A DNA stretch of 64,000 nt from the NCBI GenBank assembly GCA_964630055.1, contig CAZVRA010000002.1, forward strand, positions 143,021-207,020. Direction: 5' to 3'. The stretch comes from an uncultured Candidatus Saccharibacteria bacterium (GTDB lineage Bacteria; Patescibacteriota; Saccharimonadia; Saccharimonadales; CAZVRA01). This document shows, in pieces, positions 3,309 through 24,682 of this stretch; within the stretch, counting starts at the first letter, position 1, and every line of letters begins with the position of its first letter. Under the pieces are notes generated by a model. It was not told the origin of the DNA, ran no database searches, and worked only from the letters and a program-made list of their open reading frames with translations. The translations under genes and the position numbers were made by a program.

Positions 3309-3500
3309 AAAAATAACTCCTTTCATGTCGTTTTAGCGACGCATCTCCTGCCCGCAGGCAGAAGACAAAAGGAGCTCTGAATGTTCTAAGATAATCAGGA
3401 CCTATTTTCCGCTAGGGCTAGAAGGGGCACCGTTTGGTGGTTGGGTTTTGCCGCCCCGCCAATGGTTGCCAGTGGGTCATTGAGCTAGTTCTCTCGCCAC
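3309..3500 (-). promoter_or_regulatory. candidate SAM riboswitch (SAM-I/SAM-IV clan-like aptamer plus SD-sequestering platform) in the metK leader
   Basis: Minus-strand RNA reads ...CUCAAUGACCCACUGGCAACCAUUGG...CCAAACGGUGCCCC... This matches the conserved AUGA-CCC-GGCAACC...GGUGCC core. CUCCUUU (3368-3374) is complementary to the SD AAAGGAG (3317-3323). There is an 8-bp hairpin at 3345-3364. Confidence 0.45.
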
Positions 3501-3562
3501 ATTCTTAATACGTCAAATTGTTAATGTAGTTAAATTTTAGCATAAGTTTGGCGTACAGCAAA

Positions 3563-9528: not shown

Positions 9529-10179
9529 ATGGGTAATCTAGTGGGCGACTATTTTGTGCCTTTATTCTTTGTGATGGGCACTGGAGCGATGTGGTTTTTG
9601 GCTTATAAATTCTTGCTAGCCAAAGATGCTACTTATCGTCATTTTGGTGCTGGGCTTGGGCTTTACGGCCTGGCTTTTGCTATATGGACCGTCCTGGTTT
9701 TTACCAAACCCGAAAATCTCGAAGTTCTTACAACCTTGGGTGTCATTCCGTTTGCGCTGGCTCACTTGTTCTTTCTGATGTCTAGTACAGAAAGCCTCAA
9801 GGCCAAAAACCGTTCCCTGATTATTATGAGCGGCGTTGTTTATCTGGCTGCACTATTTTTGCTCAGAACTTTTGTTTATCCATCGCACCCCGGATTTTCC
9901 GAAAACGGCTTGTTTTATTTTAACGCCCAACCACCGGTTGTTGCCTTTTACATCGGTGCTTTCGCGGCTTCTTTGGTACCAGCTATTTATTCGGTTAGTC
10001 AAAAAATGAAAGACGAAACGCTAAAGTACGTCACACAAATAGGATTTACCATTGCCGCAATTGGCGGAATAGTGCTGGTTACTAGCCTAGACGATAATTT
10101 GCAGACCATTAACGGCTGGGTTATGGGATTTACCTACGCCGTACTACTTTGGACCTACTCCGTTAAAAAAATCAAGTAG
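9529..10179 (+). CDS. hypothetical 7-TM membrane protein
   Basis: 216 aa. Seven hydrophobic segments by eye. Own promoter and SD. No family recognised. Confidence 0.6.
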   Translation: MGNLVGDYFVPLFFVMGTGAMWFLAYKFLLAKDATYRHFGAGLGLYGLAFAIWTVLVFTKPENLEVLTTLGVIPFALAHLFFLMSSTESLKAKNRSLIIMSGVVYLAALFLLRTFVYPSHPGFSENGLFYFNAQPPVVAFYIGAFAASLVPAIYSVSQKMKDETLKYVTQIGFTIAAIGGIVLVTSLDDNLQTINGWVMGFTYAVLLWTYSVKKIK

Positions 10180-10701
10180 TCAAACAGAAGACTTTTTAGC
10201 TCGCTTTAAACTTATAACTATAAGTACGGTGCTGATAATAGCAAGTAAAATAGCTACTGGACTGAAGATTATACCAAAAAGTTGAATAAACGGTATTACA
10301 TTTAGGACAATAATAAAATTCCTGACTCCTATAAGACACGCGACAACTTTGTCCATATTGCTTGTTGGGGTGTCTTTTAATTTACTGCCAGCCCACCGTT
10401 CAAACAGAAAGCAGCAGATAAAAAAGCCAACAGCAATTAGCATGAGAATAAAGAACGTTGATAGGGCCGGATTCTTTAAAAGTATTGGCAGATCTACGAC
10501 AATTAGTATACCCAAGCATAAGCCTAAACAGATTAGATTAATAGTTTTTATCCAAGATGACCATACATTATTAACAGCTGGCGGATTACTAGCGGGCAAA
10601 GTTACCTCCGGGGGCACTGCAGTAGCTGTGGTAGCTGTGGTTGCGAGTTCGGGTTCTGATATATTATTAGGTTCTTGATTTGGTTGTTGATTTGGTTGCA
10701 T
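10180..10701 (-). CDS. hypothetical membrane protein with Pro/Gln/Thr-rich N-terminus
   Basis: 173 aa. MQPNQQPNQEPNN low-complexity head followed by 3-4 TM segments. No family recognised. Confidence 0.5.
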   Translation of the reverse strand: MQPNQQPNQEPNNISEPELATTATTATAVPPEVTLPASNPPAVNNVWSSWIKTINLICLGLCLGILIVVDLPILLKNPALSTFFILMLIAVGFFICCFLFERWAGSKLKDTPTSNMDKVVACLIGVRNFIIVLNVIPFIQLFGIIFSPVAILLAIISTVLIVISLKRAKKSSV

Positions 10702-10792
10702 ACTGCGTAGTATAGCTTATATTTAGTAAATAATTTAGTGGTTATTTTATCATCACCGGCAAAGTATTTAAACATGTATAATTACCTGTATT

Positions 10793-11965
10793 ATGAGCAT
10801 GGTAAATCTTCTAGATACTATTTTTAGTCAGGTAGAGGGCGTGCGTTTTGATATTGATCTGTGGAATGGCCAAAGCCTGCAATATGGCAGTGGTCGCAGC
10901 AAAGCGTTTACGCTAGTTTTTAAAGACGAATGGACGGCCAAGCGTCTTTTGTCGCAGGGCGCGCTGGGGTTTGGCGAATCTTACATGGAGGGCAAGCTGC
11001 TTGTTGAGGGCGATTTGGAGGCATACCTTAGTCTGCGGCATCAGTTTAAAAAAATTAAACTTTCGCCCCGGATGATGGCTGCCGCTTATTTGTCTACCAG
11101 AAGCGTGCCCAAAAATACCAAAGAGCAAATCTCTTACCACTACGATATTGGCAATGATTTTTTTGGCCTAATATTAGACCAAAAGTCGATGTCATATTCG
11201 TGCGGGCTTTACGACAAAGGGGTCGAAAGCCTTGCCGCTGCCCAACAAAACAAAATAAAACTGGTCTGCGATTGGCTAGACTTGCCCGCTGGCGCGAATG
11301 TGCTGGATCTTGGTTGTGGCTGGGGCGGGTTTGCCGTTTACGCTGCCCAAAAACATAACTGGAAAATCACTGCCTGTACGCTCAGCAAACAGCAGTACAA
11401 ATATTGCCAAAAATTGGTTAAAGCGAATGCGTTGCACAAAAAAGTTAGCTTAAAGTGCCAAGACATGCTAAAAGATTTGCCCGCAGGCGAGTTCGACGCA
11501 ATAGTGATGATCGAATCAATCGAACACGTTGGCAAATCCAATTTAGAAGATTTTATTAACAAATTGTATGACAAATTAAGGCCTGGCGGAGTTCTCTATA
11601 TCCAGACAACTGGCAAATATAAACCCAAAATGCCAGATAAGTGGACGCTCAAATATGTTTTTCCGGGTGGATATTTGCCGTCGCAGCAGGAGCTGGTCGA
11701 CGCCGCCTCCGGCGCCGGATTTGAGCTCCAAAAGTTTATAGACGACACGCCAAGTTATGTACTAACGCTAAAGGAATGGATTAAAAACCTCGAGTCAAAT
11801 CGCTCAAAAATAGAGCAGATGTTTGACCCGAAATTCTACCGCCTGTGGGAGCTGTGGATGCACGGCGCTAAAGTGGCATTTGAGGTTAATTCGATGGGCT
11901 TGTTTCGCATAAAATTGCGAAAACCCTTAAGGCTTGGTGCGGAGCCAGCAAACAATAAGCGGTAG
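10793..11965 (+). CDS. cfa: cyclopropane-fatty-acyl-phospholipid synthase family SAM-dependent methyltransferase
   Basis: 390 aa. VLDLGCGWGGFAVYAA SAM motif, YSCGLY and IESIEHVG strings typical of Cfa/mycolic-acid cyclopropane synthases. Confidence 0.85.
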   Translation: MSMVNLLDTIFSQVEGVRFDIDLWNGQSLQYGSGRSKAFTLVFKDEWTAKRLLSQGALGFGESYMEGKLLVEGDLEAYLSLRHQFKKIKLSPRMMAAAYLSTRSVPKNTKEQISYHYDIGNDFFGLILDQKSMSYSCGLYDKGVESLAAAQQNKIKLVCDWLDLPAGANVLDLGCGWGGFAVYAAQKHNWKITACTLSKQQYKYCQKLVKANALHKKVSLKCQDMLKDLPAGEFDAIVMIESIEHVGKSNLEDFINKLYDKLRPGGVLYIQTTGKYKPKMPDKWTLKYVFPGGYLPSQQELVDAASGAGFELQKFIDDTPSYVLTLKEWIKNLESNRSKIEQMFDPKFYRLWELWMHGAKVAFEVNSMGLFRIKLRKPLRLGAEPANNKR

Positions 11966-11967
11966 AA

Positions 11968-12663
11968 CTAGCTTAATTTAACTATTTTTTTCATGACCCG
12001 CCTGGCCGCCGTTTCGCAGGCTCTTTGGCTACTCTTGGTTATTGAGCTGCTCGGTTCGTTAAAAATATCTTGCGCAAATATTGGCTCGCCAAATGTTATG
12101 GTCAACTTCGGTCTGCGCTTTAGGTAATCTTTGAACGAAGTTTGTCTGTTTATGCCTTTTATGTGCATAGGAATTATTGGCAAACCAGTTTTTGCTGCCA
12201 AGTAGGCTACGCCACCCCTGGCTTCTAGGTAGTCGCCGTCATTATGTATCCGGCCAACCGGAAAAATGCACACAGAAAACCCTTTTTTTATGGCTTTTAG
12301 GTGGTTGGCTAGTGCCTTTTGGTAGTTGTTTAGGCCGCTATGCGCCTCGTAGCCGCCAATAATATTAAAGAAAAATCCCCCATAAAAAATTTTGCGTAGA
12401 CCTGTCCAGTTGGATGCGTAAAAGCCCTTGCCTTTTACCACATAAATCAGCGGTATTATGTCAGAAAAAAATGGCAAACACGACACTATTATAAGCGGGT
12501 CAAGCTCGCTAACATGATTGCTAGCAATAATGACGTTACCTTTTGTGGCTTTAATATTATCCAGGCCGTTAATTTTGGCCGAACCGCCAACAAGTATTAG
12601 CAGCCTAATTGGCAGCCAAATAATACGCTGAAAAAAACTAGGCCAGCTGAATTTTGTTGTCAC
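11968..12663 (-). CDS. 1-acyl-sn-glycerol-3-phosphate (lysophospholipid) acyltransferase family protein
   Basis: NHVSELD (HX4D) and FPVGR(I) motifs. GTG start overlaps the stop of the upstream UbiA gene (GTGA). Confidence 0.8.
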   Translation of the reverse strand: MTTKFSWPSFFQRIIWLPIRLLILVGGSAKINGLDNIKATKGNVIIASNHVSELDPLIIVSCLPFFSDIIPLIYVVKGKGFYASNWTGLRKIFYGGFFFNIIGGYEAHSGLNNYQKALANHLKAIKKGFSVCIFPVGRIHNDGDYLEARGGVAYLAAKTGLPIIPMHIKGINRQTSFKDYLKRRPKLTITFGEPIFAQDIFNEPSSSITKSSQRACETAARRVMKKIVKLS

Positions 12664-13637
12664 GGGCCAGGCATCCTCTTGGTCAATAAAAATAGTGCTA
12701 ACCCTGGAACTAATGGTAGCAAGACATGCTCCGTGGTTTGATGCGGCAAGTAGTTTTTGCTTGCAAAATAAACCAGCAAAGTCAGTATCGAGCAGTTGCC
12801 TATTTGGGCCGTGACCTTAATTAGCCGTAACTGATCGGACATTTTTTTTGTTGCTGCCAGCTTGCTTAGTAGCCACAGTACAATAATATTACCCAAGGCC
12901 AACGAAACTAGTGCTCCCGGCGAAAAATTTATGGCTACTGCAATAAATACCAGCGAAGCAAAGGCACAAATTCCGCTAACTATGCAAGTTGCTTTGCTGC
13001 CAAAACGTATTAAAAAAGTTTGTTTGCCAAATTTTTTGTCGCCTTTTACGTCGCGGAAATCTTTTAGCAAAATTCGGGCAATAAAACCAAAATAAATGCC
13101 AATTGCCAGTAACCACGTGTAGTAACTGGGGCGATTAGCCGAAAAATAGCCAACTATAAAGGGCTGGAATGTGTAAGTGGCAGGTAGTGTTAGCGGCGAC
13201 AAAATGGTTTTGTCGGTGATCCGCAGTGGGCTCAGCGAATAAGCGTAGCTGTAGGTAGCCACAATGATGGTGGCAGCTCCGGCAATGGGACCCAATAAAA
13301 ATGACAAACCAACTGCTGCTAGTCCGCAGACTGCCTGAAGGATCCAGAGCTGCCGCCGGGTGATATCTTGGCTCAAAAGTGGCCGGTCACTCGCGTTTTT
13401 TAAATTAATTTTGTCTATACTGTAATCTGCCAGGTCGTTTATGGCGTTGCCGTGGACTAATAGCAGCACTATAACTAACACGGCCACGACAATGCTAGGA
13501 GCTATGCCACCAGAGGCCAGGCTGCCCAAAACGGCGATGCTACAGCAAGATACAACAATAGGGATTCTGGCCAACTTGCGAGCAGCCGTTAACATGCCGA
13601 CTAACATGCTTGCATCTTTTTGATTCCTGAAATCCAC
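12660..13637 (-). CDS. UbiA-family prenyltransferase
   Basis: 325 aa with 8-9 TM segments. First Asp-rich motif NAINDLADYSIDKIN...RPL. Second region KDFRDVKGDKKFG. Confidence 0.8.
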   Translation of the reverse strand: MDFRNQKDASMLVGMLTAARKLARIPIVVSCCSIAVLGSLASGGIAPSIVVAVLVIVLLLVHGNAINDLADYSIDKINLKNASDRPLLSQDITRRQLWILQAVCGLAAVGLSFLLGPIAGAATIIVATYSYAYSLSPLRITDKTILSPLTLPATYTFQPFIVGYFSANRPSYYTWLLAIGIYFGFIARILLKDFRDVKGDKKFGKQTFLIRFGSKATCIVSGICAFASLVFIAVAINFSPGALVSLALGNIIVLWLLSKLAATKKMSDQLRLIKVTAQIGNCSILTLLVYFASKNYLPHQTTEHVLLPLVPGLALFLLTKRMPGP

Positions 13638-13659
13638 AACTGCTAGTATACTTTAATTA

Positions 13660-14589
13660 ATGTCTAAAGCAGAACCAAGCCGACTTGATAAGATTTACAA
13701 ACAGAGCAAATTAAAGCCGCCATACAAAGACTGGCCTTTTGTTAAACGTTTCTGGGTATTCCAGAATGAGCGGGCACCTATTATTGCATTGTTTGTTGTT
13801 GGTCTGGCGCTGGCGGCTGCGGTTTCTCGTATTAGCGGTGGCCCTAATTGGCTCCGAGTGCTAATTGCCGCCTCGATGTCTGCCCTGTATTTTTTGCAGA
13901 TCAGACTGGCCGACGAGCCCAAGGACTTTGAGCACGACAACCAGTTTCACCCCAACCGACCAGTGCAAAGAGGCTTAATTACTCTATCAGAGCTTAATAC
14001 GGTCAAAAAGATATGTATTTTTTTGTTTTTGGCGCTGGCTTGTCTGACTAAGTCGCCACTAATTATTGCTTTAGCGCTAGTGCAGCAATGCTACTCGTTT
14101 TTAACCCGCAAAGAGTTTTTTATTCGCGATTGGCTAAGGCAGCACTTTTTTATTTACCAATATTCGCATTATGCTCAGCTGTTAATTTTGAGCTGGCTAA
14201 GCGTAACGGTTTTAGGAATCCAGGGCTTGCATGAGCAGCTGATATATTTTGGATTTTTCCTGAGCATGATTGCCCCGGTCGAAGCTTCCAGAACAATTGG
14301 TGGCAGCGACGGTAAACAGGCCGATGATCGGTTTTCTTTTAAAATGGGCGTTGGCGTAGCGCTTATGAGCTTTTTGCTGGTTACTGCTATTGCAATTGCC
14401 TACGCCGTATTTTTATTGGCGCATACGGGCAAAAACCTCAATCCGATAATGCTTGGGCTTGGCCTGCTTGTAGTCGCCGCCGCCGCGATTCGCTACGAGC
14501 ACGACCCGGTGACCAAAAACGCCCAAATATTAAATGTTTCGTCGCTAGTGATGTACTTGTGTATTGCCGGCACTCTGTTGATAGGCTAG
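13660..14589 (+). CDS. divergent UbiA-superfamily-like polytopic membrane protein
   Basis: 309 aa, about 8 TM segments. DEPKDFEHD (DxxxDxxxD) followed by NRPVQRG, resembling the UbiA first motif. TATACT lies 7 nt upstream of the ATG. Confidence 0.55.
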   Translation: MSKAEPSRLDKIYKQSKLKPPYKDWPFVKRFWVFQNERAPIIALFVVGLALAAAVSRISGGPNWLRVLIAASMSALYFLQIRLADEPKDFEHDNQFHPNRPVQRGLITLSELNTVKKICIFLFLALACLTKSPLIIALALVQQCYSFLTRKEFFIRDWLRQHFFIYQYSHYAQLLILSWLSVTVLGIQGLHEQLIYFGFFLSMIAPVEASRTIGGSDGKQADDRFSFKMGVGVALMSFLLVTAIAIAYAVFLLAHTGKNLNPIMLGLGLLVVAAAAIRYEHDPVTKNAQILNVSSLVMYLCIAGTLLIG

Positions 14590-14596
14590 CCAAATT

Positions 14597-16999
14597 ATGC
14601 ACGGTAATAAAGCAAATAACCTACAATCCGTTGGCAAGCTGGGATTGCCCGTACCCGAATTTTATGTTGTAGACGCTGAGTCCTTGAGTAAAATATGCCA
14701 AAAAAAAGCTGCGGCAAAATTGGCAACAATAACAGAGGCAAAGCTACTCAAAAGTTTTAGGTACTGGTGCCAGCAAAATGATATTAAAGAAGTGGCAGTA
14801 AGGTCGTCGGCAGAGGCCGAAGATTCTAAAGACCAATCTTTTGCCGGACAATTTGCCAGTGTTATGAAGGTGTCTACAGATGAGCAATTTATAAAAGCGC
14901 TGAAAGAAGTTTTTTTGAGTCGCCCCCAGAACGGATACGGCAAAAAAACTAATCACAAGGTGCACGCCATTGTGCAGCGGTATGTCGAACCAAACGCTGC
15001 TGGCGTTTTGTTTACGGTTAACCCTGCTAACGGTTTGTCCGAAATGCTAATAAATGCCAGCGCTGGTCATGGCGGCAAAGTTGTCGATGGCAGCGAAGCA
15101 CAGTCATTTTATGTCGATAGAATTTCTGGCGATATCCGCACCGAAAAAACTGCCAACTTTGGCCTGTTGCCTCAGGCTCAAATTACCGAATTAACAAGCA
15201 TGGGCCTAATGATTGAGCAGCATTTTGGATCGCCCCAGGATATTGAGTGGGCGGTTGCCGCTGGCAAAATATACATTTTACAATCAAGGCCAATTACTAA
15301 CATTAACTACCTAAAAGTGTGGGACAACGCCAATATTGGCGAGAGTTTTCCTGGGATTGTTATGCCCCTGACTTTTTCGATTGCCCGTCGGGGCTACGAG
15401 CTGGTGTATAAATCGCAAGCTTTCGAAGGCGGCATGAGCTGGTATCAGCTGGAAGCAAATCATCGGATATTTCATGATATGGTTGGTTTGTTTGGTGGTC
15501 GTATGTACTACAATTTGGCCAGCTGGTATCAGTTTATTGGCCTCTTCCCTAGCAATCGGCGAAATCAGAAATTTTTGGATGATCAGTTGCAGACTGTCGG
15601 CGACGTTGTCTACTTGCCACCTAGCTCGTATCCGGCGCGCCAGAAAATTGGTTTTTATGCCAGGGCACTTAGGCGCACGCTGCTGTTTGAGCAAGAAAAG
15701 CAGCGATACTGGGATCGGCTGGATGATGCTTTTGCAAAGTACCAGATGCTGCCACAAGGTCAGTCGTTGCCGCTACTGCTTAAGCGATATGTGTTTGTCG
15801 AACAAATGATTGTGCCGCATATGGGCCGCAGCGCCGACAACGATTTTTTTGTTATGACTTATCATGGCCTGCTAAAACGCTACTTACGCAAGTGGTTGGG
15901 CGACAGTCAGGACTCATCCGCTAATTTTTTGGGAGCTTTAAACGACGTTATTAGTGCCCGCCAAGCCGAGCTGCTAACCATCATTGCTAGTAAAATTAAC
16001 AACGACCAAAAAGCCAGCCAGTACTTGGCCCGTGGCAACTTTAAGCAGCTAGACAACCATTTAACGACTGGCGCAGCCGCACCCTTTATAAACGAATATC
16101 GAGCCAAATTTTTGCATCGCTTTGCTGGCGACCAAAAAATTGAATCCACCAACCCGCTGCTAAGTTTGGACGGATTTTACAGCTTAATTAAAACCTACTG
16201 CCAGCTGGATTCGCAAGCCGCCGAATTGAGGCGCTCCCAAGCCATCAAGGCCGATCATGACCGCCGCCGCCAGGTCATGAAGCAGCTGAATCAGTTGCAA
16301 AAAATACTCTACAAAGTGCTACTAAAGCGCCTTAAGCATCATTTACGAATTCGTGAGCACAATCGTTTGACCAGAGGTAAAGCTTACGCTTTGCTACGCG
16401 AGCTTTTTCCTTTGGTTGGCAAGGAGCTGACAGAGCTGGGCATTATAGTCGCCGCCAGCGACGTTTATTATCTTGATATCGAGGAAATTCTGCGCTACGT
16501 TAACGGTACTGGCTATGGTGATGATGCTAGGCAAACGGTTGCGGCTCGCAAGCTTCGGTATAAGTCTTACAAAAAAACCAAAGTTCCTAGCCGTTTTATT
16601 ACAACTATGCTGGCCGATAAATTGCCTGATGCTGCCGCGCCGCCCACCGACCGGTCAATTATTGCGGCCAAATCACTGCCTGGTGCGTTGTCGTCACCAG
16701 GCGACGCCAGAGGTAAAGTTATAGTTTTGGACGAGCCGATATTGCCCAAAGAGCCGTTCGAAATACTGGTGGTGTCGCACACCGATCCTGGTTGGACGCC
16801 GCTGATTGCGCTTGCCAAGGGAGTTATTGTGGAGCACGGCGGAGTATTGTCGCATGCAGCAATTGTTACCCGCGAACTAGGGATCCCTAGCATTATTGGC
16901 GTCAAGGACGCTACTCAGGTATTAAAAAATGGCATGGAAGTTAACATTAACGCAGCCAAAAGTAGCGTCGACATTATTAAGCACAAGCAAGAATTATGA
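14597..16999 (+). CDS. PEP-utilising-enzyme-family dikinase with rifampin-phosphotransferase-like architecture (ATP-grasp, central domain, C-terminal swivel His)
   Basis: N-terminal PPDK_N-type strings (VRSSAEAEDSKDQSFAGQF, IEWA...YILQSRPIT). Extreme C-terminal mobile domain GGVLSHAAIVTRELGIPSIIGV. No PEP/pyruvate TIM-barrel domain follows. Confidence 0.8.
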   Translation: MHGNKANNLQSVGKLGLPVPEFYVVDAESLSKICQKKAAAKLATITEAKLLKSFRYWCQQNDIKEVAVRSSAEAEDSKDQSFAGQFASVMKVSTDEQFIKALKEVFLSRPQNGYGKKTNHKVHAIVQRYVEPNAAGVLFTVNPANGLSEMLINASAGHGGKVVDGSEAQSFYVDRISGDIRTEKTANFGLLPQAQITELTSMGLMIEQHFGSPQDIEWAVAAGKIYILQSRPITNINYLKVWDNANIGESFPGIVMPLTFSIARRGYELVYKSQAFEGGMSWYQLEANHRIFHDMVGLFGGRMYYNLASWYQFIGLFPSNRRNQKFLDDQLQTVGDVVYLPPSSYPARQKIGFYARALRRTLLFEQEKQRYWDRLDDAFAKYQMLPQGQSLPLLLKRYVFVEQMIVPHMGRSADNDFFVMTYHGLLKRYLRKWLGDSQDSSANFLGALNDVISARQAELLTIIASKINNDQKASQYLARGNFKQLDNHLTTGAAAPFINEYRAKFLHRFAGDQKIESTNPLLSLDGFYSLIKTYCQLDSQAAELRRSQAIKADHDRRRQVMKQLNQLQKILYKVLLKRLKHHLRIREHNRLTRGKAYALLRELFPLVGKELTELGIIVAASDVYYLDIEEILRYVNGTGYGDDARQTVAARKLRYKSYKKTKVPSRFITTMLADKLPDAAAPPTDRSIIAAKSLPGALSSPGDARGKVIVLDEPILPKEPFEILVVSHTDPGWTPLIALAKGVIVEHGGVLSHAAIVTRELGIPSIIGVKDATQVLKNGMEVNINAAKSSVDIIKHKQEL

Positions 17000-17622
17000 G
17001 TAAAAACCCAAAACCAACACAAAACCCAAGTGCAAAACCCGGGCACCTACTGGCCGAACTATCTCGGGCAGATTTTGTGACGCTGGCAGCCGTTTTGGCA
17101 ATTGTTAATTCTTTTTGGCTGCTTTGGCACGGCTTGACCGAACTGGCCGTCGCTTTGGCATTTGTCTCTACATTTTTGGACTATTTGGATGGAGTGGTAG
17201 CCAGGCGGCACGGTAGCTCGCCTTACGGCAAGGTGCTGGACTCACTTTATGATGTTTTGGGTTGGGTGCTTTTTCCGGCGCTGGTGGTTAATATTCGGAC
17301 TCATTGGGCTTGGTGGTCGATTGTGGTAACGACCATTTTTTGCCTGTTTGCTATTTTGCGGCTTGGTCGTTTTACGATTGGCGGCTACGAAGAATCCGTG
17401 GCACCTAACAAGCTGCACTACACCGGTTTGCCGGTTTTATTTAGCAAGTATGCCCTGCTGTTGGCTTTTGTCGCCAATGGAGCGCTGGCTGTGGCTACAC
17501 TGGCAATAATGACTCCGCTTATGGTGTCTAATCGGCGTATACCAAAGCCACATAAAATAACGGCCCAAATCGAACTAATATATGCTTTAATTTTTGTTTG
17601 GTTGTATTTTTATCATGGTTAG
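16996..17622 (+). CDS. CDP-alcohol phosphatidyltransferase family protein
   Basis: DGVVARRHGSSPYGKVLDSLYD fits DG(x2)AR(x7-8)G(x3)D(x3)D. Polytopic. ATGA overlap with the upstream dikinase. Confidence 0.85.
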   Translation: MSKNPKPTQNPSAKPGHLLAELSRADFVTLAAVLAIVNSFWLLWHGLTELAVALAFVSTFLDYLDGVVARRHGSSPYGKVLDSLYDVLGWVLFPALVVNIRTHWAWWSIVVTTIFCLFAILRLGRFTIGGYEESVAPNKLHYTGLPVLFSKYALLLAFVANGALAVATLAIMTPLMVSNRRIPKPHKITAQIELIYALIFVWLYFYHG

Positions 17623-18625
17623 CAGGCGCTCGCTTAAAACTAGTCTAAATGCCCTGGTGGAAATTACCAATAAAACGCACAAAACAGATATTGCACCAAT
17701 TGCCAATGCCATTTGGCGTAAGCAGTTGCAGTACAATAACCCTCTCTGGAAACATGTCGATGCCCAGGCTTTTATGGTGCAGCACAAGGACGGCTCGACG
17801 GCACACGTAATGGCCATGGTAGACCAGCGTTTACCTAAGCTTGGCCTGGTTGGATTTTTTGGTGCCACCAACGTCGAGCTTGGTGTCGAAGTTCTGCAAC
17901 AAGCCTGCGAATGGCTCAAGAACCGGCACGGCATTAAAGATGTTTACGGACCAATTAACGGCACTATTACTTGCAGCTATCGGTTTAATTTGGACAACGA
18001 TTATGCCATACCCGGCGAGCCGGTTAACCCGGTGTGGTACGTGGAAGTTTTTAAGCAGGCCGGTTTTAATGTTTTTAACCGATACGTTTCGGGTGTGGCC
18101 AAGCATGCCATGCTCTACATTAAATTTGTCACCCGCAAAAAACCTGCTAAGGGCTATCGGCACATAATTTTACAGCCTTTTGCGGCAGAAAATTCGGCGA
18201 TGGCCGGCAAACCAAGCCCAAATTTAAAAATTTATCATCAGTTAATGAATGACATCTTTCCGCTAAATAGTATCTATTGTCCGGTGATTTCGTTGGAGGA
18301 GCGGGCCTATAATATGGCGGGTTCCGAACACACTTTTGACCCGCGGTATTGTTTTTTTGCTTACGATGGCAAGCGGCCGGTCGGGTTCATTGTGGCCTTT
18401 GCACACAACGGCAATTTGGTGTTAAAGACCGTTGGGCTGTTGCCTGAGTATCGTGGCAAAAAGCTGTCCGACTTGCTGGTGCGCCGCGTTCATGAACAGG
18501 CCAAAAAAGATGGCCTAAAATCTGCAGTTTACTCTACCATCAGAACCACTACCCAAGTTTACAAAATGAAACGACCTGGGGTAAGAGTTTTTAGACGCTA
18601 CATCACCATGCACAAGGCCATATAA
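17615..18625 (+). CDS. GNAT-family N-acyltransferase with extended N-terminal domain
   Basis: C-terminal GNAT core (VGFIVAF...VGLLPEYRGKKLSDLLV...AKKDG). ATG at 17615 preferred over TTG at 17594. Overlaps the upstream stop. Confidence 0.6.
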   Translation: MVSRRSLKTSLNALVEITNKTHKTDIAPIANAIWRKQLQYNNPLWKHVDAQAFMVQHKDGSTAHVMAMVDQRLPKLGLVGFFGATNVELGVEVLQQACEWLKNRHGIKDVYGPINGTITCSYRFNLDNDYAIPGEPVNPVWYVEVFKQAGFNVFNRYVSGVAKHAMLYIKFVTRKKPAKGYRHIILQPFAAENSAMAGKPSPNLKIYHQLMNDIFPLNSIYCPVISLEERAYNMAGSEHTFDPRYCFFAYDGKRPVGFIVAFAHNGNLVLKTVGLLPEYRGKKLSDLLVRRVHEQAKKDGLKSAVYSTIRTTTQVYKMKRPGVRVFRRYITMHKAI

Positions 18626-18639
18626 AAACTATTGCAGAT

Positions 18640-19767
18640 TTATATAATAATTTTGTCGAGTATGGCAGTAACGTCGCTTGCCTGGACGACGCGCGGATTG
18701 TTTTTTAAGCGTTCGGCGCCAACCGACCGAGCAATCAGCTGTTTGGCTTGCTGTTTGTGCCGAACTTTTATGTTTGGGCGCAGGCCAATCGCGCTGGCTA
18801 TAGATTCAATTTTTTGACTAGCCTCCGTCCCATCGGACGCACCAAGCATTTGCGCGATTTCTTGAACACGCTTTTTTACCAGCCCAGCGCCTCGCGGGTC
18901 TTGGCAGGTTGCCGTACTTATAGCCGCGTTAAAAAGCATAAAAAATGGCAGCGTTAAGCCAACGGCTTCCCCGTGGTCAATGCCGTAGTGAGCCGTAAAA
19001 CCATAGGATAGCGCATGTGGCCCAGTTGTTTGCGCAATCTGGATTGATCGACCTGCCAAATTTGCGCCTTCGAGCATGGCCTTTCTTGTTTCGACCGTCG
19101 GGGCATCAACAGCTTGCTTAATGTTAGGGATTAATTTTTGCAGCGCGCCGCGACTATAACGGCGCGACTGGTCGGTGGATTTTATTGACCAATAAGCCTC
19201 AATGGCTTGGGCTATAGCATCCATGCCAGCCGAAGCGGTAACCTGCCTGGGCAGGCTGTATGTTAAAGCCGGGTCCAGCACAACAAACTTAGCAAGCGCC
19301 AAAGGGTGCGACAAAGAATACTTGCGCTTATCTATATAAATAGCCGAGAAATGGGTCGACTCTGCACCGCTGCCCGCCGTGGTTGGTACGGCAATAAATA
19401 TAGCTATCGGGGCTTTAGTTGCAGAATTATTTTTAATTATTTGTTCGATTTCGCCATCTTGCGGCGACAGCGGCGACAAAATTAAGGCGGCCTTGGCCGT
19501 ATCAATTGAGCTACCACCGCCAATAGCGATAATAGTATCGGCCTGATGATTGCGGCACAAGCGCACGATCTTTTTAATGTCCGCCAGTTTGGGGTTTGGC
19601 CTAGCTTTAAAGTGAGCGACGCGGTAGTTTTTCGGCAGTAGCTGCAGCAGCTCGGCGATGCCTGGCTGCTGGTACGAATGCTCCCCCGTTACAAACAAAA
19701 TATTTTTAGCGCCGCTACTTTTAAGAACGCCATCTATTTTTTTAATGTTGTTAAGGAATTGCTGCAT
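18640..19767 (-). CDS. iron-containing (group III) alcohol dehydrogenase superfamily protein, atypical metal motif
   Basis: GGGSSIDTAKA, VPTTAGSGAE, GMDAIAQAIEAY (Gln where the canonical motif has His), GPHALSY...HYGIDHGEAVG. Confidence 0.8.
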   Translation of the reverse strand: MQQFLNNIKKIDGVLKSSGAKNILFVTGEHSYQQPGIAELLQLLPKNYRVAHFKARPNPKLADIKKIVRLCRNHQADTIIAIGGGSSIDTAKAALILSPLSPQDGEIEQIIKNNSATKAPIAIFIAVPTTAGSGAESTHFSAIYIDKRKYSLSHPLALAKFVVLDPALTYSLPRQVTASAGMDAIAQAIEAYWSIKSTDQSRRYSRGALQKLIPNIKQAVDAPTVETRKAMLEGANLAGRSIQIAQTTGPHALSYGFTAHYGIDHGEAVGLTLPFFMLFNAAISTATCQDPRGAGLVKKRVQEIAQMLGASDGTEASQKIESIASAIGLRPNIKVRHKQQAKQLIARSVGAERLKNNPRVVQASDVTAILDKIII

Positions 19768-19805
19768 AAATATATTGTTATAATTCTGCTGATCAGAGAC
19801 TGGCC

Positions 19806-20273
19806 TTAGGCCTTAGTATTTTTAGTATCATCCAGCCTTTGACTCAACTTGCGCTGCAACAAAGTGCTAGAAATTCCGCTGGTGTAATCGGGCTCTACCA
19901 ATTGTCCGTCCCATCGAGCCAGGGTGTCAATAACCTGTTGCCGCGTTTGCTTTTGAATACCGTGCTGCCAATCGGTGCCATGCACAACATAATTTGGTTT
20001 TAATTTAATTAAATTTGGCCGATAGTCCAAAGTCTCTTGGGCAACAACTTTTGTCACTCCTTTTATGTTACTTACAATTTCTAGCCGATGCCGGTAGTTA
20101 ATTAACGGCGTGCGCTTATAGCTGGCAATTGCCTGGTCGGTCAGTAGCCCAACAATAACATCACCCAATTTTTGGCCCTGTTTTATTATGTTAATATGGC
20201 CCGGATGCACGATGTCGGCACACATCGCAATGTAGACTGTTTTTTTATTTGTCAGTTTACTGGGCATAGGCAT
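19806..20273 (-). CDS. cytidylyltransferase-family protein (TagD/ECT-like, HxGH)
   Basis: VYIAMCADIVHPGHINII nucleotidyltransferase motif, YVVHGTDW, SGISST(L). 1-nt overlap (TAATG) with the upstream Nudix gene. Confidence 0.8.
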   Translation of the reverse strand: MPMPSKLTNKKTVYIAMCADIVHPGHINIIKQGQKLGDVIVGLLTDQAIASYKRTPLINYRHRLEIVSNIKGVTKVVAQETLDYRPNLIKLKPNYVVHGTDWQHGIQKQTRQQVIDTLARWDGQLVEPDYTSGISSTLLQRKLSQRLDDTKNTKA

Positions 20274-20680
20274 TACGATGTGGCATGTTTGATAGTGTCG
20301 TGGACCATGTGCATGTAGGTGTCTTTGGCGCTTTTGGCTTTTTGGAGGAATTCACAGCGATCTACCCACGCGTAAGACGAGTGTTCCTGACTTAATGCGA
20401 TTTTAGGATAGGATTTAAGGTTGGCGATAAAAAGAACATAATGCGTATTGTCTGCCGAATATTCTGCCCCCGAATATATCTCGCGCGTATCATGGGCGTC
20501 AATAACCACTCCGGACTCCTCTCGAACTTTGCGTAGCATTGTCTGCAGTGGCATCTCTGCACCTTCCGACGAGCCGCCCGGTATATCCGGATCGTCGCCA
20601 AACTTAGGGTGTTTGTTTCGGTGCATTATAAGAAATTTGCCGTCAGGGTTAATCATTACCAGTTTTGCAGCTTTTTTCAT
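20273..20680 (-). CDS. Nudix hydrolase
   Basis: Nudix box GSSEGAEMPLQTMLRKVREESGV (Gx5Ex7R[E/K]UxEExGU). Confidence 0.8.
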   Translation of the reverse strand: MKKAAKLVMINPDGKFLIMHRNKHPKFGDDPDIPGGSSEGAEMPLQTMLRKVREESGVVIDAHDTREIYSGAEYSADNTHYVLFIANLKSYPKIALSQEHSSYAWVDRCEFLQKAKSAKDTYMHMVHDTIKHATS

Positions 20681-20738: not shown

Positions 20739-21490
20739 CTAGCTAAATTCCAGCATTAGCGGCAAATGGTCCGAGACCACATCTGGCAGCACCTCAAATT
20801 TTTTGACCGGCAAATCTTTGGAAACAATGGCGTAGTCGGCGAACTTATTGGGCCATTTGTACAAGTGGCTGCGGGTTGAGGTTATGCCGTTTTCGGCAAT
20901 AAGGTTGCGCATGTCTACCTCTAAAATTGCCATGCTTTGAGTGTGCGGCTCCAGATTAAAATCGCCAATTAGAATTACTTTGCCACTGGCTTTTGTTGCT
21001 ATAAAGTCCCGTATTTTTTCGGATTGTTCGATTCTGTCTGGTGTGTCGTTTTTGCCTTTGCCATTCCAAAGTCCGTGAAAGTTAACGACTGTATATTCCT
21101 GCCTGCCGGCCATTAGGCGAGCATATTGTATGTTGCGGCCAAGCGTGGAGCCGTCGTTATTTTTTAGAGCGTTTAAATGGCGGTGCACAAAAACGCTGCC
21201 CACATCGTTAATTTTAATATGCGGTTTTATGTTTATAAATAGCGCCAAGCCTTCGTCATGGTCCTGGGATGGTGCGTAAAAACCTTTGTGGTTTGGCAGC
21301 AGACCGGTCAGTGTTTTGTACAGATTGATGTCAATTTTGCCGCCATCAAGTGCAGCGACTCGCGGGTTATCGGCGTTGTCAAAAACCTCCTGAAAACAAA
21401 AAATGTCGGTCGTTCCGGCCTGCGCTTTTATAAACTCGTGCAGCTGTTTTTTACTATGTCACCACAAGTATTTAAGGATATTAGTTTCAT
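20739..21490 (-). pseudogene. endonuclease/exonuclease/phosphatase (EEP) family gene, split by a 1-nt frameshift in a homopolymer
   Basis: ATG at 21490 gives MKLISLNTCGDIV... then a stop. The neighbouring frame continues KKQLHEFIKAQAGTTDIFCFQEVFD... into ORF 20739..21248 (ends SDHLPLMLEF). One extra A in the A6 run (plus T6 at 21447-21452) restores the frame. Confidence 0.75.
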
Positions 21491-21712: not shown

Positions 21713-24682
21713 TTATCTACCCTCAACTATTGCTATTTCTTCCTCTGTAAGACCGTATAGTTCGTACACTAGCTGATCAATCATTTTGTCTGTCTGCTGT
21801 ATCTCTTTGTCTATAGATTGCAGTTCGCTACGATACTTATCAAAGAGTTGCAATAGCTCATCTTTTTGTTGCAAAGTTAAATTAACTTTCAAAAGATTAG
21901 TAAACTCGATGTAGTCAAGAGACCACCATTGAAGTAATTTTGTTGGTAGTTTATCAATATTAAACTCACTTTGTAAAAGCTTTTGGAAATTATAATTCTT
22001 AGTCTTTAGGCGGGCTAATTTATCCCTAAATTGGTCATGCAGAGCCGCAAACTTATTACTTTGAATGGAATTAGGCGTAACTATAGGTAATTGTTCTAAC
22101 GTGGATTTGTTAATTGCCAAATAGCCGCCTGCAAGATGTTTATCGGCAAACTCTTTTAGTAAGTAATGCGTCATAAACCTGCTATTTAGAATGGCAGTTA
22201 GTGCCTTAGGATTTTGTCCCGCATAGTCGTATATAGCATATACGCCAACCCCTAGAGCAAGAGGTTTTGGTGCATAGACTGCTTCGATTCTTTTGGTCAT
22301 TCCTGCAATAACGATTTTTTCGTTGTTCCAAAATCTGTATTTTGATTCTGATACTTCTTGGCGGTAACTATAAATATATGGATGTGAATACCTTGATTTC
22401 ATGTAAGGGACAAGGGTCGTGTCAATTGTGTATGGATCTATACTCCCGCTAACCGCAAAAGGTATGCCATCATTATTCTCGTTTAGTAGTGGTTTTATTT
22501 TCTGCGCTTCAAAGCCGGTTGTGCCAGAATTAATTTTAATACCAACACTAGCTAAACTTTCGAATCTTTTTAAAGGATTGTCTTTTGCTTGATACTCTTC
22601 AACACTATTTAAATGTTCTGGATTAGTGATGTCATAGCGGATTGAACCAGATTCTTTGCGATTAAGACTGCCAATAACTATTATCGGGTATACTCCGACA
22701 CCGTTAAAAACGGATAATTTTGATACATTAACTACCATTTTCAGTGATTTATTTTCAAGTGTTCTTAAAACTTTTTTGGCGTAGTCGGCTATCAGCAACT
22801 TGTTAGGTATGATCCAACCGTATCGACCGGTTTGTTTTAGTAAATCGTGTGCTTTAAGCAAGAATGCAGCATAGAGGTCGTAGGATCCTTGCAATGCTTT
22901 ATACTTTTCATTAAGATATTTTCTATCAATTATATCCATATTGCGAGCGTTCACATAAGGCGGATTACCTACCACTACATCAAAGCCTCCGTCTTTAAAA
23001 ATGTCGGGAAATTCTTTGTGCCAGCCAAAGGCTTTGTTGCCCGCAACCGAAGGGTCATCGATTAGGCTGTTGCCGCATTTGATATTTGCGTCGAGGGCGG
23101 TTAATTTTTTGCCCTTTTGGGCGGTTTTGAGCCACAAAGATAATTTGGTAATTTCTACTGACTCCTCGTTGAGGTCGACCCCATAAATATTGTTACGCAA
23201 TATGTCCTTAACATATGCTTCGGAGCTAAATAAATCGTTGCCAAGAATCTCGCCCACCCGTTTGTTTTCGGCCAGCAAATAGTCAAAAACGTACACCAAA
23301 AAGGCGCCGCTACCGCAAGCAGGGTCTACCACCTTTATATTTTGCAAAAAGGTTTGGTAGTGTCGGTATGCCTGCTTTTCGCGCTTTTCGTATGTTTTGT
23401 CTTGTATGCCTTCGTGCAGCTTAAATTCATCTTTGAGCTGCTCTTCGCGTTCGCGCAAATAAGCGCCAAGCGAATTATCGACAATGTAGCGCACAATGTA
23501 GTCTGGCGTGTAAAATATGCCATCTTTTTTGCGTCTACTTATTGCCAGCGTCTCTAAATTGTTTGTTTGGTTAACTTTTTGCTTAATTTCTTCGATATCA
23601 CTGATTGACTGCTCAAATATGTGACCTAAAATGTTTACGCTCAGATCTTCTGCAAAGTTGTAGTTACTAAGCTCTAGTACTGAACGCAACGGTGCTTCGT
23701 TTACTTTAAGGTTATTAAGTACTTCGTCGTGGGCAAACAGTCCGCCGTTATAACCTTCGGGGATTTCGAGCTTGTCGCTGCCAGCATCGATGGCCTCAAA
23801 AAATCCTTTTAGTGTATTCCATAAGCTGCCGCCAAAGACCGAACTGTCGGCCGCCCGCACAACTTTGGCAAGCGTGTTGTCGGGGAGTAGACCCCTGTCT
23901 TCGGCAAAGCAAGCAAAAACAATCCGGTCAATTACTTTTTGAGCTTTTTCGACGCCGACATCAATGTTTTTTCGTATGTGAGCATTGTTGGCGTAAATAT
24001 CGCGCAGTAGTTCCAACCGCACCTGCTTATAAACTTTGTAAAACTTTTTACCAATTTCCTCTTGATCTATACGTATGTCGGTAAGGAGCTGCTCTGTTTT
24101 GCTGGGGCCTGTTTGGCTAATAAAATTTTGCCGCTTCAGCAGCGAATACCACATTTTAAACTGAATATAATCGTCATTAGGGTCGACAAGATCATCGAGC
24201 GTCCATGCTTCGTAGTCGAGCAGGTTGTCGTGGTATAGGCGGAATTCGTAAAAGTTACTAACAATTACAAACGGACAATTACGGTACTGCGTTTTGTACT
24301 TGAAGCCCTGCTGCACGGGGCTCATATTGCCTTCGCGTCGTTGCGGGCGATCGAGCGGCGTGCTTGCACTTTTGAGCTCTATAACAGCCGACACATTTTT
24401 GCCGTTATAGCTTATGACCGCGTCCGGCAACTGCCCTTTTTGGGTGGTAGCTTTTGGCTCAAAACAATAAACTGTTGCCGGTTTTTCGCGGTAGCCTAAA
24501 ATGTTTAAGAAAAAATCACGGTTGTATTGCTGCTCACGAGACGTTTCTTTATCGAATTTTAGAGTACCGTGGTGGTAGTCGTTGTGCCACTTTTTGGCAA
24601 TTTCGATGAAGCTTGCGATTTGGTCGTCGCTAACTTTGCTTGCAATTTCTCTTAGTCTGTTTTTTCCAAATAAGCTTGCCAT
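21713..24682 (-). CDS. Type IIG (Eco57I/MmeI-like) single-chain restriction endonuclease / N6-adenine DNA methyltransferase
   Basis: 989 aa. N-terminal PD-ExK (PDAVISY...VIELKS). Methyltransferase motif I VVDPACGSGAFLV and motif IV VVGNPPYV. C-terminal specificity region ending LVYELYGLTEEEIAIVEG. Confidence 0.85.
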   Translation of the reverse strand: MASLFGKNRLREIASKVSDDQIASFIEIAKKWHNDYHHGTLKFDKETSREQQYNRDFFLNILGYREKPATVYCFEPKATTQKGQLPDAVISYNGKNVSAVIELKSASTPLDRPQRREGNMSPVQQGFKYKTQYRNCPFVIVSNFYEFRLYHDNLLDYEAWTLDDLVDPNDDYIQFKMWYSLLKRQNFISQTGPSKTEQLLTDIRIDQEEIGKKFYKVYKQVRLELLRDIYANNAHIRKNIDVGVEKAQKVIDRIVFACFAEDRGLLPDNTLAKVVRAADSSVFGGSLWNTLKGFFEAIDAGSDKLEIPEGYNGGLFAHDEVLNNLKVNEAPLRSVLELSNYNFAEDLSVNILGHIFEQSISDIEEIKQKVNQTNNLETLAISRRKKDGIFYTPDYIVRYIVDNSLGAYLREREEQLKDEFKLHEGIQDKTYEKREKQAYRHYQTFLQNIKVVDPACGSGAFLVYVFDYLLAENKRVGEILGNDLFSSEAYVKDILRNNIYGVDLNEESVEITKLSLWLKTAQKGKKLTALDANIKCGNSLIDDPSVAGNKAFGWHKEFPDIFKDGGFDVVVGNPPYVNARNMDIIDRKYLNEKYKALQGSYDLYAAFLLKAHDLLKQTGRYGWIIPNKLLIADYAKKVLRTLENKSLKMVVNVSKLSVFNGVGVYPIIVIGSLNRKESGSIRYDITNPEHLNSVEEYQAKDNPLKRFESLASVGIKINSGTTGFEAQKIKPLLNENNDGIPFAVSGSIDPYTIDTTLVPYMKSRYSHPYIYSYRQEVSESKYRFWNNEKIVIAGMTKRIEAVYAPKPLALGVGVYAIYDYAGQNPKALTAILNSRFMTHYLLKEFADKHLAGGYLAINKSTLEQLPIVTPNSIQSNKFAALHDQFRDKLARLKTKNYNFQKLLQSEFNIDKLPTKLLQWWSLDYIEFTNLLKVNLTLQQKDELLQLFDKYRSELQSIDKEIQQTDKMIDQLVYELYGLTEEEIAIVEGR

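Follow-up and report, generated by a model that had tools for sequence, protein, structure and literature searches.

What is a phosphohistidine dikinase with the architecture of a rifampin phosphotransferase (RPH) doing among genes of membrane-lipid biosynthesis? The question was raised by a stretch of 64,000 nucleotides from an uncultured Candidatus Saccharibacteria bacterium (contig CAZVRA010000002.1, positions 143,021 to 207,020; the whole stretch is referred to as the window), in which an 800-residue dikinase is encoded directly upstream of a CDP-alcohol phosphatidyltransferase. A first-pass annotation of this sequence had suggested that both proteins form a functional pair which acts on a membrane-associated alcohol and that the dikinase is not an antibiotic-resistance gene. 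Based on the neighbourhood, the conservation and the predicted structures described below, the dikinase very probably acts in a membrane-lipid pathway and not in antibiotic resistance or phosphoenolpyruvate (PEP) synthesis. The explanation favoured here, which as a whole is considered probable though far from secure, is that of an RPH-type small-molecule dikinase of a lipid pathway, which phosphorylates an isoprenoid alcohol or monophosphate as donor for the adjacent UbiA-like membrane protein UbiA2. All statements on the substrate of the dikinase are inferred from gene context.

The first-pass annotation had assigned an ATP-grasp domain at the N terminus, a central domain and a terminal swivel domain with the phosphohistidine to the protein. 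This layout was confirmed by Pfam (PPDK_N, E 1.7e-40; PEP-utilizers mobile domain at residues 722-787, E 1.6e-21) and by a full-length fold match, as the AlphaFold2 model, built on 28 orthologues with a mean predicted local distance difference test score (pLDDT) of 84, matched the RPH-Lm structures 5HV1 and 5FBS along the whole chain (Foldseek; best 5HV1, E 2.9e-33). PF27448 (Rph_4th) is a precomputed domain assignment for the dikinase. The swivel domain holds the motifs TDPGW at residue 729 and GGVLSH with His753 (codon 16853-16855) and ends 13 residues before the C terminus, the next open reading frame (ORF) being that of a separate protein. In line with the earlier reading, a C-terminal PEP/pyruvate barrel (PEP-utilizers_C, PF02896), hidden or overt, was found in the dikinase neither by Pfam and NCBIfam nor in the predicted model. 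The names 'pyruvate, water dikinase' and 'phosphoenolpyruvate synthase' given in source databases would, together with the PPDK_N domain, make it a PEP synthase or pyruvate phosphate dikinase of central metabolism; the probability of this is negligible, considering the missing barrel, the C-terminal position of the swivel domain and a score of 174 bits on the PEP synthase model TIGR01418 (cut-off 740), and both of these enzymes matched the model only via its ATP-grasp and swivel parts.

The chemistry to be expected was derived from a HMMER alignment to RPH-Lm, which covers residues 66-236 and 423-794 of the dikinase. Here, Arg69, Ser88 and Glu217 were identified as the equivalents of the ATP-site residues Arg117, Thr136 and Glu297 of RPH-Lm, His753 aligns with the phospho-carrier His825, and Arg586-Glu587 and Arg590 (codons 16352-16366) align with Arg666-Glu667 and Lys670. 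The roles of these RPH-Lm residues come from mutational data, whereby Arg666-Glu667 and Lys670 bring the phosphoryl group into position for the second transfer step (PMC4844700). All of the dikinase residues named here except for Ser88 are invariant in the 28 orthologues, and Lys5 of an invariant G3-x-K5 motif is probably the counterpart of RPH-Lm Lys22, residues 1-65 lying outside the printed alignment. As the catalytic residues are conserved, the dikinase looks catalytically competent for both half-reactions, which would convert ATP and acceptor into AMP, Pi and phospho-acceptor via a phosphohistidine on the swivelling C-terminal domain.

The acceptor side differs. Residues 237-410 of the dikinase could be aligned with residues 317-490 of RPH-Lm neither by phmmer nor with a 28-sequence profile, and it is this RPH-Lm segment which holds nearly all rifampin contacts (Gln336/337, Tyr351, Thr354, Pro356, Ala357, Met359, Val368, Leu387, Leu478 and Phe479; PMC4844700). 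The segment is thus described as not alignable by sequence, which is no claim that each contact residue differs. Met673, the one contact outside this segment, corresponds to Arg593, which is invariant, and the comparison of the central domain with the rifampin site, as proposed in the first-pass annotation, thus found no conservation of that site. The NCBIfam model rph (NF041857) scored 183 bits (cut-off 999), and the identity to RPH-Lm was 20-22% in the Foldseek alignments. Given this score and the unalignable segment, the dikinase is, as judged by its sequence, not an RPH orthologue. A genuine phosphotransferase which inactivates rifamycins or other antibiotics is nonetheless what several orthologues are called by JGI ('rifampicin phosphotransferase'), and the nearest solved structure is that of RPH. 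This reading is very remote, as validated members of RPH clade A share >42% identity with RPH-Lm as compared to ~21% for the dikinase, the dikinase resides in a conserved lipid-related operon, and a distant-clade homologue tested by Stogios et al. conferred no resistance (PMC4844700). According to a prediction of the same work, phosphotransfer and the Arg-Glu-Lys block would persist in distant clades, which would use other substrates (PMC4844700), and the dikinase matches this prediction. The earlier view that no resistance gene is at hand was therefore upheld, also by a gene context that holds lipid genes only. This is of practical relevance, because members of the clade are automatically named rifampicin phosphotransferase or PEP synthase, while the present evidence indicates that the clade is neither, and rph-like genes are included in the counts of resistome surveys on candidate-phyla bacteria (PMC8651080).

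The similarity of the layout to that of RPH is real, yet the layout is not specific to RPH, since it is shared with the prodiginine ligases PigC, RedH and HapC and with split phenol and hydroxyphenylethanone dikinases. The dikinase missed all curated NCBIfam family cut-offs, the best model being the uncharacterised PRK06241.2-2 (424 bits, cut-off 883). RedH (241.9 bits) and PigC (200.8 bits) score as well as or above rph, and in HapC and PigC these three domains, with the phosphohistidine mechanism, serve a condensation (PMC13534948). It was therefore considered whether the dikinase is an activating ligase of the PigC type, in which a transient phosphoryl leaving group drives a condensation (e.g., formation of an ether or C-C bond) without a stable phosphate ester. 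This is quite improbable: the scores stay far below the cut-offs of 1350 (RedH) and 1300 (PigC), no pig or red genes lie near the dikinase, and prenyl condensation is already provided by the UbiA enzymes. The products of the known ligases are condensed pyrroles, not lipids. The two-component dikinases PpsAB, CreHI and HpeHI (PMC12167813) belong to the same family, with HpeI matching the ATP-grasp part. Some close orthologues of the dikinase (in L025 and P0087-P0097; loci and proteins are numbered with L and P) are likewise split, a ~565-residue central-plus-swivel protein being encoded apart from the ATP-grasp, for which L025 has a separate 354-residue ORF elsewhere in the locus. The known two-component enzymes initiate the catabolism of soluble aromatics, whereas the clade of the window is found in biosynthetic membrane-lipid operons.

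The operon of the window is compact. The overlap of the dikinase stop with the transferase start at 16996-16999 was confirmed (ATGA within gaattATGAgt), UbiA2 stops 7 nt before the dikinase start codon (at 14589), and the transferase stop (17620-17622) overlaps the ATG of a tandem-GNAT acyltransferase (17615) by 8 nt, so that UbiA2, dikinase, transferase and GNAT gene form a compact four-gene unit on the plus strand. Overlaps of 4 nt are common in operons and unremarkable alone. According to a hydropathy count, the dikinase (0 hydrophobic segments) is encoded between two polytopic membrane enzymes; the transferase has ~6 segments and the GNAT protein 0. The transferase passed the Pfam model PF01066 (50.1 bits, cut-off 22) with an intact motif (DYLDGVVARRHGSSPYGKVLDSLYD at residue 62; pattern D(x)2DG(x)2AR...G(x)3D(x)3D). 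It resembles, as far as sequence and structure searches go, the PssA/archaetidylserine synthase subfamily below the equivalog cut-offs, scoring 72.7 bits on pssA (TIGR00473, cut-off 107) and 61.8, 58.8 and 55 bits on archaetidylserine synthase models (cut-offs 200-240), with PssA of M. jannaschii (7B1K, E 6.5e-9) as nearest solved structure. Enzymes of this subfamily use a CDP-lipid donor, yet the only cytidylyltransferase of the window cluster is of the soluble small-molecule type. The AlphaFold2 model of the GNAT protein (pLDDT 90.6) showed a tandem-GNAT fold like that of MshD, GlcN N-acetyltransferase and MAB_4324 (Foldseek matches 3TT2, 7Q3A, 5KGH and 1OZP over ~300 columns), that is, two GNAT folds of which the C-terminal one appears to keep the acyl-CoA-binding signature. 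A mechanical ORF of this gene starts at TTG 17594; the gene call in the database is 336 residues long at 100% identity.

The protein-coding genes from 9529 to 20680 besides the dikinase encode lipid and head-group enzymes or membrane proteins without assigned function, hence the membrane-lipid setting that had been suggested for the dikinase was borne out by a neighbourhood entirely of this character. The genes farther out are unrelated (S-adenosylmethionine (SAM) synthetase, L,D-transpeptidase, transporters and a large restriction-modification-like ORF).

Whether these neighbours matter was assessed by their conservation. The dikinase superfamily comprises 33,083 representatives at 50% identity (E<=1e-3; 3,397 at E<=1e-30), within which the window's own clade amounts to ~97 clusters of 90% identity at 45-68% identity to the window protein, followed by an abrupt drop to 33%; at 50% clustering, five representatives reach at least 570 bits (39-57% identity) before the score drops to 402 bits. 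Archaeal 'relatives' (Woesearchaeota and others) are ~1,215-residue proteins of another architecture and were set aside. Loci were taken from species-representative genomes (72), metagenomes (80) and exact protein look-up (five), and neighbours were mapped by tblastn with the window proteins and recurrent neighbours. The counts refer to loci with adequate flanks, classified as close (dikinase identity of at least 45%, n=8, L074 and L078 apparently being the same sequence) or distant (28-35%, n=24). The named close relatives are mostly metagenome-assembled genomes of Saccharimonadia/Patescibacteria (L001-L006). The close-type cluster was also identified in L073, a 4.28-Mb contig of 68% GC whose dikinase is 53% identical to that of the window and whose cluster is complete from the membrane protein memb216 to a fusion of cytidylyltransferase and PEP mutase (PepM), and in assemblies labelled Verrucomicrobiae and Burkholderiaceae. 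Its presence outside Saccharimonadia-type genomes may be explained by horizontal spread or mis-binning, and Saccharimonadia-like bacteria may have exchanged the cluster with other phyla. The distant group includes metagenome-assembled genomes named Parcubacteria/Paceibacterota, Peribacteria, Bacteroidales, Schleiferiaceae/Cryomorphaceae, Victivallis and Gammaproteobacteria, with cyanobacterial loci (Spirulina, Pantanalinema) at the edge of its identity range.

Across these loci, UbiA2 and the tandem GNAT were each found in 8/8 close and 23/24 distant loci, so that UbiA2, dikinase and tandem GNAT are the constant core. The proportion of loci with a UbiA gene no more than 1.5 kb from the dikinase goes from 8/8 over 24/28 to 11/29 as the dikinase identity falls from at least 45% to 24-28%. 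The CDP-alcohol transferase was present in 8/8 close loci but in only 1/24 distant ones, in which a BtaA-like DUF3419 protein (0/8 close, 22/24 distant) takes its place, and owing to these counts both proteins are mutually exclusive occupants of a head-group position. Consequently, the gene pairing behind the putative stoichiometric functional pair of the first-pass annotation is, together with the overlap, conserved within the close clade, but the pairing is specific to this lineage and the transferase is not the defining partner of the dikinase. In six of the eight close loci and in L005 (37% identity), the dikinase gene is immediately followed by the transferase gene on the same strand, and an overlap was found at 7/7 co-directional junctions (6 distinct sequences), i.e., ATGA in the window, L074/L078, L025 and L005, GTGA in L073 and 8 nt in L001 and L002; the overlap is informative because it is conserved at all of them, not for its length of 4 nt. 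In L003 and L004, the transferase and GNAT genes are inverted as a unit onto the other strand, hence the transferase travels with the GNAT and not with the dikinase. UbiA1, a second UbiA-family prenyltransferase (8/8 close), and the soluble cytidylyltransferase (7/8 close) were not found in the 24 distant loci, while memb216 occurs in 8/8 close and 6/24 distant loci, and f4, a membrane protein of ~210 residues, in none of the close and 18/24 of the distant ones. CMAS-type genes were found in 6/8 and PlsC-type genes in 7/8 close loci.

These counts bear on the idea that the dikinase acts in a Kennedy-like manner on a head-group alcohol, i.e., that a small alcohol (possibly the product of the iron-containing alcohol dehydrogenase (Fe-ADH) encoded nearby) is phosphorylated, activated with CTP by the soluble cytidylyltransferase and moved to the lipid by the CDP-alcohol transferase, which is the reading closest to the idea of the first-pass annotation. 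The window possesses the dehydrogenase, the cytidylyltransferase and the CDP-alcohol transferase but neither a PEP mutase nor a decarboxylase in its 64 kb, so that on this reading some phospho-alcohol has to be supplied. It is considered improbable, because the dikinase persists both in L073, L003 and L004, which make a phosphonate head group without a kinase, and in 22/24 distant loci without a cytidylyltransferase or CDP-alcohol transferase. Moreover, in an alignment of 35 dikinases from both branches, the central domain was found to be best conserved at residues 243-325 and in the R586-E587/R590/R593 block (586-593). As these blocks, which in RPH lie around the phosphoryl acceptor, are conserved in both branches, the acceptor is suggested to be the same whatever the head-group enzyme, which weighs against a head-group alcohol.

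A link to isoprenoids is provided by the gene neighbourhoods of distant relatives. In L094 (3652-11926 of a metagenomic contig), an 864-residue RPH-type dikinase resides in an archaeal-style lipid cluster with the order HMG-CoA reductase-EcKL/APH kinase fusion, dikinase, UbiA, PssA-like transferase, phosphatidylserine decarboxylase and CarS-like CDP-archaeol synthase. HMG-CoA reductase adjoins the dikinase in five loci, as a kinase fusion in L094, L096, L115 and L118 and stand-alone in L009, and L090 combines a related dikinase with diacylglycerol kinase, CdsA and PssA-like genes. Such neighbourhoods document that RPH-type dikinases are repeatedly recruited to isoprenoid and phospholipid gene clusters. 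The f4 proteins are named phytol kinase or dolichol kinase by JGI; PF01148 was detected on a few members only, and otherwise neither a Pfam, NCBIfam or PDB match nor a similarity to CarS by hhalign was obtained. The UbiA2 homologues that adjoin dikinases in L075, L077 and L094 pass the Pfam UbiA model, those of L075 and L077 best matching PRK13592 of NCBIfam (70-80 bits).

The main rival reading places the dikinase downstream of UbiA2, where it would phosphorylate the hydroxyl of a prenylated or acylated backbone to a phosphatidate-like lipid, which is then CDP-activated and receives its head group from the PssA-like transferase. The type of transferase in the window, which joins a CDP-lipid donor and a small alcohol, its conserved translational coupling with the dikinase, the gene chain of L094 from dikinase to CarS-like enzyme, which needs a lipid phosphate, and the combination of a CDP-alcohol transferase with a CarS-like sequence in L005 and L007 are consistent with this. 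It is unlikely, as the window and the close loci hold no CdsA or CarS gene and the distant branch keeps the dikinase but exchanges the transferase for the BtaA-like enzyme. BtaA, the characterised relative of the DUF3419 protein, uses a free lipid hydroxyl and not a lipid phosphate.

The favoured explanation places the dikinase upstream of UbiA2 instead. As the soluble member of the core, it would phosphorylate an isoprenoid alcohol or its monophosphate, and the resulting phosphorylated prenyl donor would pass to the adjacent UbiA-like transferase; the CDP-alcohol transferase would attach a polar head group, which the GNAT would N-acylate. Different head-group enzymes accompany the core in different lineages, namely a PssA-like transferase and a Fom1-like cytidylyltransferase in the window's clade (in some members with PEP mutase and decarboxylase) and a BtaA-like DUF3419 protein elsewhere. 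That the GNAT acylates the amine of an alpha-amino-acid head group (serine via the PssA-like, homoserine via the BtaA-like enzyme) is a conjecture. An isoprenoid acceptor is about evenly balanced between right and wrong, and the supply of a phosphorylated prenyl donor to UbiA2 is put forward tentatively, being somewhat more likely to fail than to hold. The latter was suggested because (i) the adjacency of dikinase and UbiA is near-universal whatever the head-group chemistry, (ii) a phytol-kinase-like protein or HMG-CoA reductase-kinase fusions occur in other branches and (iii) no prenyl-diphosphate synthase (PF00348) was found in the five Pfam-annotated neighbourhoods (L073-L077), other loci being unscanned for one. 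In addition, phytol salvage provides a precedent, in which the CTP-dependent phytol kinase VTE5 and the phytyl-phosphate kinase VTE6 feed the UbiA-family prenyltransferase VTE2. Both systems may work alike in that kinases turn a prenol into a UbiA donor, which is an analogy and not a homology: VTE6 and the dikinase are not related to each other, a homologue of VTE6 was not seen, and it is the distant loci, not the window, which carry a phytol-kinase-annotated protein next to dikinase and UbiA.

Several findings weigh against this explanation. The UbiA2 copy of the window itself stays below the Pfam cut-off (PF01040, 25.8 bits, cut-off 34.2), a phytol-kinase-like gene was not found by tblastn in the window or the close clade, and no UbiA accompanies the dikinase of L090. 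Many hosts of the distant branch (Bacteroidales, Schleiferiaceae, Victivallis, Spirulina) do not have reduced genomes. Such hosts would be expected to make their own prenyl diphosphates, which would render a dedicated salvage kinase less obviously necessary. Donor supply does not account for the GNAT, a partner just as universal. Finally, lipids and phosphate monoesters are not among the acceptors of any characterised member with this layout; these enzymes act on a phenol, on an enol-like oxygen or on a secondary alcohol (PMC4844700, PMC12167813, PMC13534948).

Further insight into the head group came from phosphonate genes in close relatives. In L073, the GNAT gene is followed by Fe-ADH, a phosphonopyruvate decarboxylase (Ppd; 408 bits on TIGR03297, cut-off 312.5) and the cytidylyltransferase-PepM fusion (320.8 bits on TIGR02320, cut-off 319.55), which has the diagnostic EDKCGQKRNS motif; both fusion and decarboxylase are also encoded in L003 and L004, immediately upstream of UbiA2. 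The cytidylyltransferase of the window shares 61% identity with residues 5-141 of the L073 fusion, and its Fe-ADH 42% with the L073 enzyme adjoining Ppd and PepM. PEP mutase and phosphonopyruvate decarboxylase gave no tblastn match in the 64-kb window, and L001, L002 and L074 are similar to the window. The product of the window may carry a phosphate ester in place of a phosphonate; alternatively, both missing genes could be located elsewhere in the genome. The arrangement in L073, L003 and L004 is that of the Fom1 type, which makes CMP-2-hydroxyethylphosphonate (PMC6697681), and PF01467-PEP mutase fusions frequently occur in gene clusters predicted for phosphonolipids and phosphonoglycans (PMC6697681, PMC8942020). 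With the 'Burkholderiales_CDP-OH' phosphonolipid clusters (PMC8942020) and Fom1, the close relatives share the PF01467-PepM fusion, Ppd, Fe-ADH and the CDP-alcohol transferase, whereas the window lacks PEP mutase and decarboxylase; a dikinase or UbiA is not mentioned in PMC8942020, nor is CDP-alcohol in PMC6697681.

The archaeal CDP-archaeol route is the other obvious comparison. UbiA1 is nearest to DGGGP-synthase models, the CDP-alcohol transferase to PssA/archaetidylserine synthase, and the L094 dikinase lies inside a cluster of this kind, but the scores remain below equivalog cut-offs and neither GGGP synthase nor G1P dehydrogenase was found in the window. Likewise, DUF3419, the phytol-kinase-like protein, CdsA, CarS, phosphatidylserine decarboxylase and HMG-CoA reductase gave no tblastn match there. 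A further-reaching reading takes the UbiA-dikinase-GNAT core as an undescribed isoprenoid membrane-lipid route of Patescibacteria and other phyla with a dikinase reaction new to the family, which could be the phosphorylation of a prenyl monophosphate or, boldest, the transfer of the whole pyrophosphoryl group from His-PP to a prenol (prenol diphosphokinase), feeding UbiA. In the window's clade, this route would yield an isoprenoid lipid that bears a CMP-activated phosphono- or phospho-alcohol, or else a head group of the N-acylated serine type. This reading is decidedly unlikely as it stands. Ultra-small Patescibacteria are generally regarded as unable to build lipids.

The enzyme family and its chemistry are already known, and a non-antibiotic role of distant clades was anticipated in 2016. 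A full-text literature search yielded no description of a UbiA-dikinase-GNAT module with interchangeable head-group enzymes, nor of such a module, in some cases with phosphonate genes, in Patescibacteria-type genomes. If the favoured explanation is true, membrane-lipid biosynthesis joins antibiotic inactivation, pigment condensation and aromatic catabolism among the roles of the family. A lipid operon of ~11 kb in genomes close to Saccharimonadia, with phosphonate head-group genes in some relatives, also bears on how these reduced bacteria obtain or remodel their membranes, and a constant core with mutually exclusive head-group enzymes constitutes a defined and testable module.

Table 1. Genes of the window cluster and domains of the dikinase (positions in the window).
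Feature	Position	Strand	Properties and basis
memb216, polytopic membrane protein, 216 residues	9529-10179	+	~5 hydrophobic segments; no Pfam match in window copy
Membrane protein, 173 residues	10180-10701	-	No family match; several hydrophobic segments; Pro/Thr/Ala-rich N-terminus
Cyclopropane-fatty-acyl-phospholipid-synthase-like SAM methyltransferase	10793-11965	+	Pfam CMAS, E 1.4e-73
PlsC-type acyltransferase	11968-12663	-	Pfam Acyltransferase, E 1.3e-15; HX4D motif HVSELD at residue 50
UbiA1, UbiA-family prenyltransferase	12660-13637	-	Pfam UbiA, 109.6 bits; motif NDLADYSID
UbiA2, divergent UbiA-like membrane protein, 309 residues	13660-14589	+	Asp-rich motif DEPKDFEHD (pattern (N/D)(D/E)xxDxxxD); ~7 hydrophobic segments
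Dikinase, 800 residues, ATG start	14597-16999	+	ORF and Pfam
Dikinase, ATP-grasp domain, residues 1-236	14597-15304	+	Pfam PPDK_N; aligned with RPH-Lm 114-316
Dikinase, predicted central acceptor-binding domain, residues 237-692	15305-16672	+	R586-E587-x-x-R590 block; rest partly unalignable
Dikinase, phosphohistidine swivel domain, residues 693-800, and stop codon	16673-16999	+	Pfam PEP-utilizers 722-787
CDP-alcohol phosphatidyltransferase, PssA-like, 208 residues, ATG start	16996-17622	+	Pfam CDP-OH_P_transf
Tandem-GNAT acyltransferase, 336 residues from ATG 17615	17615-18625	+	Pfam Acetyltransf_1 at residues 235-317
Fe-ADH, iron-containing alcohol dehydrogenase	18640-19767	-	Pfam Fe-ADH and ADH_Fe_C
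Soluble cytidylyltransferase (PF01467)	19806-20273	-	Pfam CTP_transf_like, E 1.3e-14
NUDIX hydrolase	20273-20680	-	Pfam NUDIX, E 1.8e-11; stop shares one base with cytidylyltransferase start

The remaining genes of the cluster (Table 1) were assigned to families with differing precision. The orthologue of memb216 in L074 gave a weak match to PF07947 (YhhN), and the cyclopropane-fatty-acyl-phospholipid-synthase-like protein reached 236 bits on PRK11705 of NCBIfam (cut-off 400). The best NCBIfam models of UbiA1 were PRK12884 and PRK12882 (DGGGP-synthase and chlorophyll-synthase groups), both below cut-off, and that of Fe-ADH was the phosphonate-associated TIGR03405 (Phn_Fe-ADH, 163 bits, cut-off 423.7). 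A weak homologue of the 173-residue membrane protein adjoins the PlsC gene in L012. 'PlsC-like' proteins of 387-390 residues in L005 and L007 contain a CarS-like segment (10712-11266 and 7689-8198, respectively), which suggests a putative acyltransferase-cytidylyltransferase fusion. The NUDIX enzyme might act on a CMP conjugate or a prenyl diphosphate. The position equivalent to the NUDIX gene of the window is occupied in L073 by a PEP-mutase domain and decarboxylase, and the L073 cluster is flanked by genes for shikimate kinase, type II dehydroquinase and a LigD primase-polymerase. Distant loci outside the candidate phyla radiation add a gene of the fatty-acid-CoA-ligase family; a radical-SAM gene of ~380 residues recurs in or beside the module in some distant loci and an NAD_binding_4 gene (fatty-acyl-reductase type) in Parcubacteria-type ones, the loci listed for both being L012, L023, L029, L079, L109 and L120.

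Beyond the cluster, a SAM riboswitch (3399-3514, minus strand; 44.7 bits, gathering score 44.4) was identified directly upstream of the SAM synthetase gene (2304-3326, minus strand). On the other side, a 169-residue ORF (20739-21248, minus strand) aligns with the Exo_endo_phos profile only over the C-terminal part of the latter (positions 139-225 of 225) and may be a truncated gene or have a mis-set start. The 989-residue ORF bordering the lipid cluster (21713-24682, minus strand) contains a 'VVGNPPYV' motif, by eye the motif IV of N6-adenine methyltransferases, and is probably a fused type IIG restriction-modification enzyme.

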